Of a stretch of 64,000 nt of DNA, positions 19,060-21,318 are shown piece after piece (the stretch's first letter is position 1; each line of letters opens with the position of its first letter). Made by a program: the position numbers and the translations under genes. Source of the stretch: a virus; IMG/VR virus record IMGVR_UViG_3300027902_000006, positions 64,001 through 128,000 of that record, one strand, 5' to 3'. The notes beneath the pieces were generated by a model that was not told where the DNA came from, ran no database searches, and worked only from the letters and a program-made list of their open reading frames with translations.

Positions 19060-21318
19060 TCAACTACAATTACTCCAGCCACACCAAGGGCAAGTAGAAC
19101 ATCCTCCGCCCATATCCAATAATTCCCCACAGTCGGGGCACATGGGGCTGGCGATGGGAATCGAACCCGCAACCTGAGCCTTACAAGGACTCTGCTCTTC
19201 CGTTGAGCTACGCCAGCCTAACTTCCTTTTACGAATGACCTTAGCAATTCCGTCCGGAGGAGAAAGTATAGCTTGGCCATCATGCCAACCCGTCTTCTCA
19301 CCGATAATTCCTCGGAGTTGCTTCTCTACTTCTTCCCATGTAGCTCCCTTGTTAAGAGCCAGAGTGGCGAGTCTTCCTATCGCTGCGTTCATGGAAGATA
19401 GAGTACGTCCTTCTTTGCTGATTTGCGACCAAAGTTCTTTATACCCGGTCTCTGGGTCTTCAAAGAGATGGACATAAAGCGTACCTTCTCCTGTTCTGAC
19501 TCTATCCCTAGAACCTTCTAAGTAGTCGGGAGGTTCACCTGGGCCAAAGATCTTTTCTAAGAGTTCAACCTCGTCTCTCGTTTGCTTCACTTCTACGGCT
19601 TCTTTTTTATTATTTATGATTGTAACCCGAACCGCCTCTGCTACTACTTCGGGAGAGACAGTTCCCTTGACAGCCGGAGATTTAACTTCTCTTATATCAG
19701 TTTGGGCCTCTTCTTCTCTACTTCCTTGGCGATAGAAGGTTAGTCCTTTACAACCAAGGACATATGCAAGTTTAAATGCAGCATCAACCTCCTTGACAGT
19801 GGCGTCATGGGGAGCATTGATGGTTTTGCTTACCGCATTATCAACATGCTTCTGAAACGCTGCTTGCATCTTCACATGAGATACAATAGGAACATCTTTA
19901 GATTCTATCCAATAGGGGGGAATGGGATACTCTACACAAGCGTCAGTAAAACTCATGACAAATTCTTCGTACAACGGATGCATTACAATCAAAGTATCGT
20001 CAATAGCCTTCTTCTTAAATTCAAAAGCGAAGACTGGTTCAATTCCACTACTACATCCTGCTATGAGTGATAATGTTCCAGTAGGAGCTATCGTAGTACA
20101 GGTTCCATTACGTCGTCCTAATACTATCTCACCTTTTTCAATACCTAACTGTTTAGAGTAGTCATGAGCAGTAGTATTGATAATCCTCATGACGCGTTCG
20201 GCAAGTTCTAGACTCCCACTACTGCCATAGGTTATTTTCAACTTAATTAACATGTCAGCCCATCCCATTACTCCAAGACCGACCTTACGAAACTTCTTTG
20301 TCTCACGTTCGATCTCGGAGATAGGATAGTTATTGACATCTATAATATTGTCCAAGAATCGGATAGCTACTCTGACGACTTCTTTTAGTCTCTCTGTATC
20401 AATAGATCCATCTACGACAAAGTTACTGAGATTGATACTTCCTAGTGTACAACTTTCTGAGTTTGCTAAAATTTGTTCCCCACACGGGTTACATCCTCGT
20501 AGAGTCTGATAATCACGTAACGGATTTAGCCTATTTATTGTATCAATAAATAAAAGACCCGGTTCTCCATTTTCCCATGCACCATTAACGAGATATTCCC
20601 ACAATTGTAAAGCAGGTATCGTTGATGAATCTACTCCATTGAATCGTAGTGTCCAAGGCGTATCTTTTCCACTTAGACAATTCATAAAGATATCACTCAT
20701 ACAGACTGAGATATTGAAATGTCTAAGTTTCCCCTCTTTTTCTTTACAAGTAATAAATTTAATGATGTCTGGATGATCTATGTCTAGGAGGCCCATCTGT
20801 GCCCCTTTACGAACGCCTCCTTGTTCGATGACTTCTCCTACTACAAAGTCGAAAACGTTCATGAACCCCAATGGACCACATGAACGCCCCTTTGTAGTAG
20901 AAATTAACGATCCTTCTGGTCTAAGCCATGAAAAGTTATATCCTGTGCCACCACCATAGGCTTGAACCTCCACTGCATTCTTCAATACGTTGAAAATAGA
21001 TTCTCTACTATCTTCTATATCAAAATAAAAACAGGCACTAAGATTCCCATTATTAGCTCCTGCGTTTCGTAAGCATGGGGAGTTTGGTAAGAAGTCTAAA
21101 CTTGACATTATCTCATAGAATTTCATAGACCATTCGGCAAAGAGTATTCCGTCTTTCTCAGCACTCGCTACATGCTTCGCTACTCGCCAAAACATCTCAT
21201 TTGGAGTTTCTATAACGTTATCATTCTCGTCTTTAACGAGAATCCTGTTTTCCAGAACTCTAATCGCGTTTTCAGATAGTCTCATAGTAGGGGAAGTGCC
21301 CGTGTATTCAGACCCCAC
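19060..21318 (-). CDS. nrdJ: class II (B12-dependent) ribonucleotide reductase with TSCPD-like domain and C-terminal Zn ribbon
   Basis: FLPNSP, LSACF, GGGTG, NPCGEQ, CTLGSINL, TIAPTGT, SKTIN; C-terminal CPDCG..CSTCPWCGWSNC. Confidence 0.92.
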   Translation of the reverse strand: MGSEYTGTSPTMRLSENAIRVLENRILVKDENDNVIETPNEMFWRVAKHVASAEKDGILFAEWSMKFYEIMSSLDFLPNSPCLRNAGANNGNLSACFYFDIEDSRESIFNVLKNAVEVQAYGGGTGYNFSWLRPEGSLISTTKGRSCGPLGFMNVFDFVVGEVIEQGGVRKGAQMGLLDIDHPDIIKFITCKEKEGKLRHFNISVCMSDIFMNCLSGKDTPWTLRFNGVDSSTIPALQLWEYLVNGAWENGEPGLLFIDTINRLNPLRDYQTLRGCNPCGEQILANSESCTLGSINLSNFVVDGSIDTERLKEVVRVAIRFLDNIIDVNNYPISEIERETKKFRKVGLGVMGWADMLIKLKITYGSSGSLELAERVMRIINTTAHDYSKQLGIEKGEIVLGRRNGTCTTIAPTGTLSLIAGCSSGIEPVFAFEFKKKAIDDTLIVMHPLYEEFVMSFTDACVEYPIPPYWIESKDVPIVSHVKMQAAFQKHVDNAVSKTINAPHDATVKEVDAAFKLAYVLGCKGLTFYRQGSREEEAQTDIREVKSPAVKGTVSPEVVAEAVRVTIINNKKEAVEVKQTRDEVELLEKIFGPGEPPDYLEGSRDRVRTGEGTLYVHLFEDPETGYKELWSQISKEGRTLSSMNAAIGRLATLALNKGATWEEVEKQLRGIIGEKTGWHDGQAILSPPDGIAKVIRKRKLGWRSSTEEQSPCKAQVAGSIPIASPMCPDCGELLDMGGGCSTCPWCGWSNCS
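19143..19217 (-). tRNA. tRNA-Thr(UGU) embedded in frame in nrdJ
   Basis: GCTGGCG TA GCTC AACGGAA GAGC A GAGTC CT-TGT-AA GGCTC AGGTT GCGGG TTCGATT CCCAT CGCCAGC C CCA (75 nt). Confidence 0.85.

Follow-up and report, generated by a model that had tools for sequence, protein, structure and literature searches.

An in-frame tRNA-Thr(UGU) gene nested in a predicted disordered linker of a phage class II ribonucleotide reductase gene

The window analyzed here, a stretch of 64,000 nucleotides (nt), corresponds to bases 64001-128000 of the 140,478-base-pair (bp) IMG/VR virus record IMGVR_UViG_3300027902_000006, which represents an uncultured phage and is estimated to be 92% complete. The minus strand, which carries almost every gene of the window, encodes nrdJ, a class II ribonucleotide reductase (RNR), and a sequence-only reading of this DNA had noticed that a near-canonical 75-nt transfer RNA (tRNA) gene, tRNA-Thr(UGU) with an encoded CCA (19217-19143), appears to be embedded in this protein-coding gene. 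ARAGORN makes the same call, and the Rfam tRNA family (RF00005) matches the element end to end with a score of 59.1 bits (E-value 7e-11; gathering score 29), which is within the 34-75.6 bits spanned by the other six tRNAs of this genome, all intergenic. The predicted cloverleaf has the 7/4/5/5 bp layout, with a perfect acceptor stem (7 bp), a D stem of 4 bp and an anticodon stem of 5 bp. The 7-nt anticodon loop, CUUGUAA, contains U33 and a purine at position 37, the T-loop, UUCGAUU, is of the UUCGAWU type, and a discriminator C precedes the encoded CCA.

The tRNA is located wholly within the 752-codon open reading frame (ORF) of nrdJ, on the same strand and free of stop codons, where it is translated as codons 701-725, extending one base into codon 726, such that the tRNA base G1 is the second base of codon 701 and the terminal A of CCA is the A of the ATG codon 726. 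The 25 tRNA codons make up the entire linker between the ...RKRKL sequence that follows the TSCPD-like domain and the MCPDC... sequence with which the C-terminal zinc finger (Zn ribbon) begins. Both the in-frame position between these two domains, which was borne out by ORF translation and Pfam, and the linker peptide, which was quoted exactly, had been recognized in the sequence-only reading. Among the seven tRNAs of this genome, that for Thr alone is found in a long open frame, the other six being intergenic, and it is also the only tRNA-Thr of the 140-kb genome. An ordinary tRNA cluster of the same genome lies at 12.5-14.9 kb of the window. With its U34 anticodon, the Thr tRNA fits in with those for Gln (UUG), Gly (UCC) and Pro (UGG), so that U34 is present in four of the seven tRNAs. 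The region directly upstream of the nested gene contains no sigma-70-like promoter, and the tRNA is therefore presumably transcribed within the nrdJ message.

The nrdJ product contains the RNR all-alpha (PF00317, E-value 4e-23), RNR barrel (PF02867, 1e-107) and TSCPD (PF12637, 8e-10) domains, and the closest solved structure is that of T. maritima NrdJ (PDB 1XJE, E-value 2e-91). Both the latter protein and S. nassauensis NrdJd (PMC5704485) are dimeric class II enzymes that resemble the phage enzyme in the all-alpha and barrel domains, in the NPCGE motif with its thiyl-radical cysteine and in the cysteine-rich tail, whereas a tRNA-encoded linker is present in no described NrdJ. The residues N277, P278, C279 and E281 of the motif are invariant in the NrdJ alignments. 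By homology, the phage protein would be an adenosylcobalamin-dependent nucleotide reductase. As judged from the alignment to relatives, the real start of nrdJ is probably the ATG at 21285 (M12). The tail shows the pattern CxxC...CxxCxxC...C that is typical of NrdJ, with C727, C730, C740, C746 and C751 invariant across 66 NrdJ sequences. In the AlphaFold2 model based on this 66-sequence alignment (mean pLDDT, or predicted local distance difference test score, of 85), the pLDDT drops below 50 in just two internal segments, residues 545-589 and 703-722, which correspond to the two linkers that host tRNAs in this gene family, namely linker 1 between the barrel and TSCPD domains and linker 2 between the TSCPD domain and the zinc finger.

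Relatives of this gene were collected from IMG/VR with the NrdJ protein as query, from JGI metagenomes with an alignment of the TSCPD region that is specific to the clade, and from two protein-database searches; when IMG/VR was scanned again with this alignment, the same three contigs were recovered. The phage NrdJ clade is split from bacterial NrdJ with 100% tree support and is small, with 7 representatives among 1.84 billion proteins reaching an E-value of 1e-30 or better. No close relative was found among GenBank phages, in which the only match is a 70-nt tRNA segment. Besides the window, eight genes of the clade hold a complete, stop-free tRNA in frame (Table 1), which is tRNA-Thr in four genes and tRNA-Gln in one gene, in linker 2, and tRNA-Asp in three genes, in linker 1. 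In each of these relatives, the nrdJ frame continues through the tRNA to the zinc finger with no stop codon. The CCA is encoded in all nine nested tRNAs, as it is in all free-standing tRNAs of these phages, and the nested tRNAs of relatives that were rescored with Rfam reach 55-68.5 bits. The presence of the same arrangement in eight related genes excludes chance. The same finding bears on the possibility of an assembly chimera in which nrdJ was fused to a fragment that carried a tRNA. Although the window stems from a metagenome assembly, the nested cases come from IMG/VR, JGI, Logan and ENA assemblies of different samples, with diverged sequences, and with the same frame-preserving architecture recurring in nine independent assemblies, such an artifact is hardly conceivable. 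Nesting is not genome-wide: the five tRNAs at the four tRNA-bearing sites of the relative G003 are intergenic, like the other six tRNAs of the window genome. In one of the relatives with a nested tRNA-Thr, a tRNA-Asn(GUU) gene (L056:165-242) is located about 100 nt upstream of the nrdJ frame.

Table 1. Features of the nrdJ locus and nested tRNA genes of the phage NrdJ clade. Positions without a label refer to the window; the others are preceded by the label of the sequence in which the gene is found.
Feature	Position	Strand	Remarks
nrdJ, class II (B12-dependent) ribonucleotide reductase	19060..21318	(-)	longest ORF, GTG start, 752 codons; ORF list and translation
Linker 1, barrel to TSCPD, residues 545-589	19552..19686	(-)	predicted disordered; tRNA-free in the window; hosts tRNA-Asp(GUC) in L002, L057 and L058
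TSCPD domain, residues 605-697	19228..19506	(-)	Pfam PF12637; pLDDT about 90
tRNA-Thr(UGU), 75 nt, encoded CCA	19143..19217	(-)	ARAGORN tRNA-Thr(tgt); Rfam RF00005
Cysteine-rich zinc-finger/redox tail, residues 726-752, MCPDC to CGWSNCS	19063..19143	(-)	followed by TGA stop, 19060-19062
Nested tRNA-Thr(UGU)	L001:5047-5122		linker 2, as in the window
Nested tRNA-Thr(UGU)	L055:1045-1119		linker 2
Nested tRNA-Thr(UGU)	L056:2510-2584		linker 2
Nested tRNA-Thr(UGU)	L069:5561-5635		linker 2
Nested tRNA-Gln(UUG)	L050:3419-3492		linker 2
Nested tRNA-Asp(GUC)	L002:4735-4813		linker 1
Nested tRNA-Asp(GUC)	L057:2267-2345		linker 1; L057 and L058 near-identical
Nested tRNA-Asp(GUC)	L058:148-226		linker 1

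The alignment of nrdJ from relatives, which had been proposed earlier as a way to tell a cloverleaf conserved with covariation from a decaying one, revealed covariation in the five nested Thr tRNAs and decayed remnants in two other genes (L053 and L057). In the five Thr tRNAs, 96.2% of the cells form standard pairs on the cloverleaf, and in 11 of the 21 pairs both partners have changed. This level was attained by none of 500 column shuffles, in a test that is inflated by the relatedness of the sequences, and sliding the partners by 1-3 columns yields 33-53% pairing. The two lineages of nested Asp tRNAs differ at two compensatory pairs of the acceptor stem. Among the five Thr tRNAs, pairs 3-70, 4-69, 6-67 and 7-66 are variable, and G1-C72, C2-G71 and the anticodon (including G35 and U36) are invariant. 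In the E. coli system, G1-C72, C2-G71, G35 and U36 are the identity elements for threonyl-tRNA synthetase (ThrRS).

The encoded peptide behaves differently from the tRNA. Between genes, the tRNA nucleotides are 70-85% identical, with 70-75% among the five Thr tRNAs, compared to 35-42% for third codon positions (saturated), and the linker residues that flank the tRNA are not alignable among relatives, in agreement with the earlier remark that this linker is variable in NrdJ. In L001, the D-loop has one extra base, so that the tRNA is intact and its first third is read in another frame (AGVAQQVE versus GWRSSTEE in the window), the rest being in the same frame as in the window and giving VAGSIPxASP. 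The peptide has changed while the tRNA remained intact, and selection therefore appears to act on the RNA, not on the peptide. On the strength of these sequence comparisons, the RNA is under selection and the encoded peptide is a tolerated spacer. The proposal of dual-coding DNA made in the sequence-only reading thus gains strong support from comparison, namely from nine in-frame, stop-free nested tRNAs, a covarying fold, and tRNA nucleotides that are kept when the peptide is not. The DNA in question very probably serves both as a tRNA gene and as coding sequence of nrdJ.

An alternative to maintenance of the tRNA is that it is a neutral passenger that landed in a tolerant linker, in frame by luck, and is slowly decaying, with neither its production from this position nor the overlap being of consequence to the phage. 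Stop-free frames are indeed common in free-standing phage tRNAs (57 of 144 reading frames, about 40%), so that about one random insertion in eight would be tolerated, with selection on the enzyme keeping those, and the losses and remnants in the clade, as well as a T-stem mismatch in the window copy (see below), also fit this scenario. However, compensatory change preserves the cloverleaf across genes with saturated synonymous sites, and a decaying insert would be unrecognizable at such a distance, as the unalignable flanking linker demonstrates, which makes a neutral passenger unlikely, even though decay evidently sets in once selection lapses. The tolerated insertion that had been offered as an alternative explanation of the locus thus holds for the peptide, which resembles a tolerated passenger, but not for the tRNA itself, which is actively maintained.

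RNase P cuts tRNA-like structures in some bacterial mRNAs, and by this precedent the cloverleaf could be a cis-acting, tRNA-like element of the message that is never used in decoding and that either limits NrdJ synthesis by giving RNase P access to the message or acts as a stabilizing structure. The strong tRNA-derived stem that two decayed copies have kept (see below) would be compatible with such a role, given that structure alone could have value. A mere cleavage handle, however, would have no need of a canonical anticodon loop with three sensible anticodons (UGU, UUG and GUC). Furthermore, the CCA is encoded, the ThrRS identity pairs are invariant, the genome has no other tRNA-Thr, and the nested tRNA-Gln of L050 has the A1-U72 acceptor end and G73 in common with the free-standing tRNA-Gln of L001. 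A cis-acting element that never participates in decoding is thus quite improbable.

The strict preservation of the reading frame can be traced to the enzyme. In S. nassauensis NrdJd, the cysteine-rich domain is required for turnover with a non-thiol reductant, and the separately expressed domain, when added in trans, failed to restore activity in vitro (Loderer 2017, PMC5704485). Because this domain is inactive in trans, the tail must be part of the same chain, and all nine nested genes are accordingly in frame. Two further routes to a working enzyme were considered and rejected. The first is a splicing-like excision of the tRNA followed by re-ligation of the message: the nested tRNAs are 74, 75, 76 or 79 nt long, and removal of 74, 76 or 79 nt would shift the frame, which is the case in four of the nine genes. 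Excision with re-joining therefore breaks the frame, leaving read-through as the only route to an intact enzyme. The second is that ribosomes initiate anew at the ATG overlapping the CCA and make the zinc finger as a protein of its own; an ATG before CPDC is found only in the window and L001, and the domain failed in trans.

Several observations weigh against a functional tRNA maintained in this position. The T stem of the window tRNA has a C50-A64 mismatch that adjoins G49-U65, the sole blemish of the cloverleaf, and this copy may be somewhat weakened. The codon ACA accounts for 27% of the Thr codons of the phage, which is no strong argument from codon demand. The sample is small, comprising nine genes that may go back to three to five independent events. 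Finally, two genes of the clade (L053:3856-3923 and L057:2712-2779) keep only an in-frame, tRNA-derived remnant in linker 2 and several relatives are tRNA-free; given this decay and loss, the tRNA must be dispensable in some lineages.

The remnants align to the tRNA with z-scores of 4.5 (L053) and 6.6 (L057) and now form a stem of 13-14 bp (GCCAGCAGAGGGA...TCCCTCTGCTGG) from the former acceptor and T-stem strands, with z-scores for folding relative to shuffled sequences of -3.4 and -5.1, respectively. The L057 gene combines the Thr remnant in linker 2 with a tRNA-Asp in linker 1. No Thr remnant was found in linker 2 of L003, L051, L002 or L054, and a tRNA-Asp remnant is likewise missing from linker 1 in the window, L001, L056, L003, L050 and L051; linker 1 of L069 contains a possible but weak tRNA-Asp remnant (z-score 2.6). 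In the protein tree, linker 2 contains a Thr tRNA in the basal L056 and L055 (with L057 and L053, likewise basal, keeping remnants), in L069, which branches at the base of the inner group, and in the pair formed by the window and L001, a distribution that requires at least four changes. The tRNA-Asp of linker 1 is present in one basal and one derived gene of the tree, which requires two changes. The simplest reading of the Thr distribution is an old insertion followed by repeated loss, with one replacement by Gln in L050. However, recombination between phages could equally explain the distributions of both the Thr and the Asp tRNAs.

The targets of many integrating elements are tRNA genes, and such elements carry stretches of tRNA origin; SSV-type integrases contain the attachment site (attP) inside their own gene. 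The nested tRNA could thus be an attP site, or a recombination scar as suggested in the sequence-only reading, that matches a host tRNA, in which case variation tracking host tRNAs would mimic covariation. Neither tyrosine (PF00589) nor serine (PF00239) recombinases, however, were found in the 140-kb genome (estimated 92% complete). Moreover, attP sites usually comprise only the 3' part of a tRNA, whereas here the whole cloverleaf, with a matching 5' strand, is present, and integration at this site would split the gene of a replication-module enzyme. A search of 185,579 species genomes for the pattern of the acceptor stem and the UGU loop produced a single match, which is not near-identical and belongs to an array of 28 tRNAs. 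The scar is therefore unsupported, and an attachment site appears highly improbable. The array itself extends over about 4 kb on one strand (L064:2349-6536) of a contig that is binned to a metagenome-assembled genome of Blastocatellia, and it probably represents a phage or a mobile array of tRNA genes. The tRNA-Thr(UGU) encoded there has the acceptor stem and the unusual C73 discriminator in common with the window tRNA.

The neighbors of nrdJ are genes for replication and DNA metabolism, including a gp32-like single-stranded DNA-binding protein, a RecA/UvsX-like protein and a Mom-like protein (16853-17567, minus strand; Pfam Mom, E-value 3e-29). Several other features of the window and of the clade were observed in the course of this analysis. 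On the minus strand (13364-13514), an amber-suppressor-type tRNA (anticodon CUA, labeled Pyl by ARAGORN) adjoins a tRNA-Gly(GCC) with no spacer. The codon TAG terminates 25 of the 103 long ORFs, so that, despite the CUA tRNA, recoding of TAG is not apparent in this genome. An 85-nt near-perfect hairpin (15740-15824) that matches on both strands is located between the tRNA cluster and the block of genes that follows; its only Rfam match is a spurious, below-threshold one to a microRNA family. Inteins of the LAGLIDADG or HNH type interrupt the catalytic barrel of several nrdJ genes of the clade (L051:3001-6201, L054:465-3983 and L069:1501-5808); L069 contains inteins in addition to the nested tRNA-Thr, and nrdJ thus collects several kinds of inserted elements. 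The L051 protein (L051:5665-6012, P0003) also has an 11-residue insertion with three cysteines (GNCPKCGHKNC) within the TSCPD domain that is absent from the other members of the clade.

Taken together, the sequence comparisons establish that the tRNA is intact, that selection on the structure of the RNA maintains it, and that such tRNAs are invariably in frame and recur in both disordered linkers. The locus is thus likely to contain a functional phage tRNA-Thr(UGU) gene that is nested in frame in a disordered linker of nrdJ and whose transcript has two alternative uses. We infer that the tRNA is transcribed only within the nrdJ message, processed and charged, and that tRNA and protein are mutually exclusive products of each RNA molecule. 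Ribosomes that read through the tRNA segment would produce full-length NrdJ, in which the 25 tRNA-derived codons would contribute no more than a flexible tether between the enzyme and its cysteine-rich redox tail. A transcript, or a stretch thereof, that is free of ribosomes would fold into the cloverleaf, from which RNase P and 3' trimming enzymes would release the mature tRNA ending in the encoded CCA. This release would destroy the respective copy of nrdJ, the 5' piece becoming a non-stop mRNA, and the genes downstream on the 3' fragment would retain their own ribosome-binding sites; downstream of nrdJ, AGGAG precedes an ATG at 19018. The cut by RNase P and 3' processing that, according to the sequence-only reading, would link tRNA production to RNR output is physically reasonable and matches the model of Mukai for selC in selB.

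The closest known parallel is indeed the selC gene (tRNA-Sec) nested in the selB ORF of Alphaproteobacteria, which was described by bioinformatic analysis only (Mukai 2021, Int J Mol Sci 22:4605, PMC8124441). As in the window, an entire tRNA is encoded in frame on the same strand of an ORF and translated into extra residues, some lineages retain remnants, and folding and processing are modeled to yield a non-stop mRNA, with tRNA and protein as alternative products (PMC8124441). The two systems differ in that the selC segment is a C-terminal extension after the last functional domain of SelB, whereas the nested tRNAs of nrdJ are internal and separate domains that need a covalent link. In addition, selB, in a cellular genome, always contains the functionally linked tRNA-Sec, of which SelB is the elongation factor, whereas the phage nrdJ genes, with no known link between enzyme and tRNA, contain three tRNAs in two linkers. 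The phage locus therefore shares with the selC-in-selB type the presence of a whole tRNA in frame, but not the C-terminal placement and the functional tie.

Other tRNA genes partly or fully within protein genes are found in compact mitochondrial genomes of animals, for example that of the isopod Armadillidium vulgare (cited as refs 17 and 24 in PMC8124441). There, too, nucleotides are shared between tRNA and protein genes, and the expression of one is in competition with the processing of the other, but these are organellar overlaps with aberrant tRNAs under extreme compaction, in contrast to the canonical tRNA in an inter-domain linker described here. Bacterial-type cloverleaves with an encoded CCA and mostly U34 anticodons are likewise seen in the tRNA genes that T4, T5 and many other large phages carry, alone or in clusters, between their ORFs, whereas the nested tRNA-Thr lies within an ORF and is translated as well. 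Phage nrd genes are also known as landing sites for inserted elements such as inteins and group I introns, but unlike these elements, which remove themselves from the product, the nested tRNA remains in the protein as linker residues. Full-text literature searches turned up no published phage ORF with a tRNA nested in it, the only comparable cases being those of Mukai 2021 and of mitochondria.

Outside mitochondria, it is very rare for a single stretch of DNA to encode a working tRNA together with part of a functional enzyme, and selC in selB, a bioinformatic prediction in which the tRNA lies at the end of the protein, is the only published bacterial case that we found. With three tRNA identities, two linkers and remnants of decay, the phage NrdJ clade provides a natural comparative series on the competition between the ribosome and RNase P. 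Annotation pipelines that bar overlaps between tRNAs and coding sequences would drop the tRNA or truncate nrdJ, with the loss of the redox tail, so that both the tRNA repertoires of phages and the RNR annotations are miscounted. As a more tentative possibility, which we consider doubtful at present, the nesting could be adaptive, such that ribosome traffic sets the fate of the transcript, tying tRNA supply to translational load and limiting RNR synthesis, and such that disordered linkers of conserved phage enzymes are general, exchangeable docking sites for tRNAs. Under this scenario, dense translation would keep the cloverleaf unfolded and yield enzyme, and sparse or stalled translation would let it fold, turning a spent message into a long-lived tRNA. 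If that is the case, the swapping of Thr, Gln and Asp tRNAs in the two linkers would represent exchangeable docking that is already visible in this clade.

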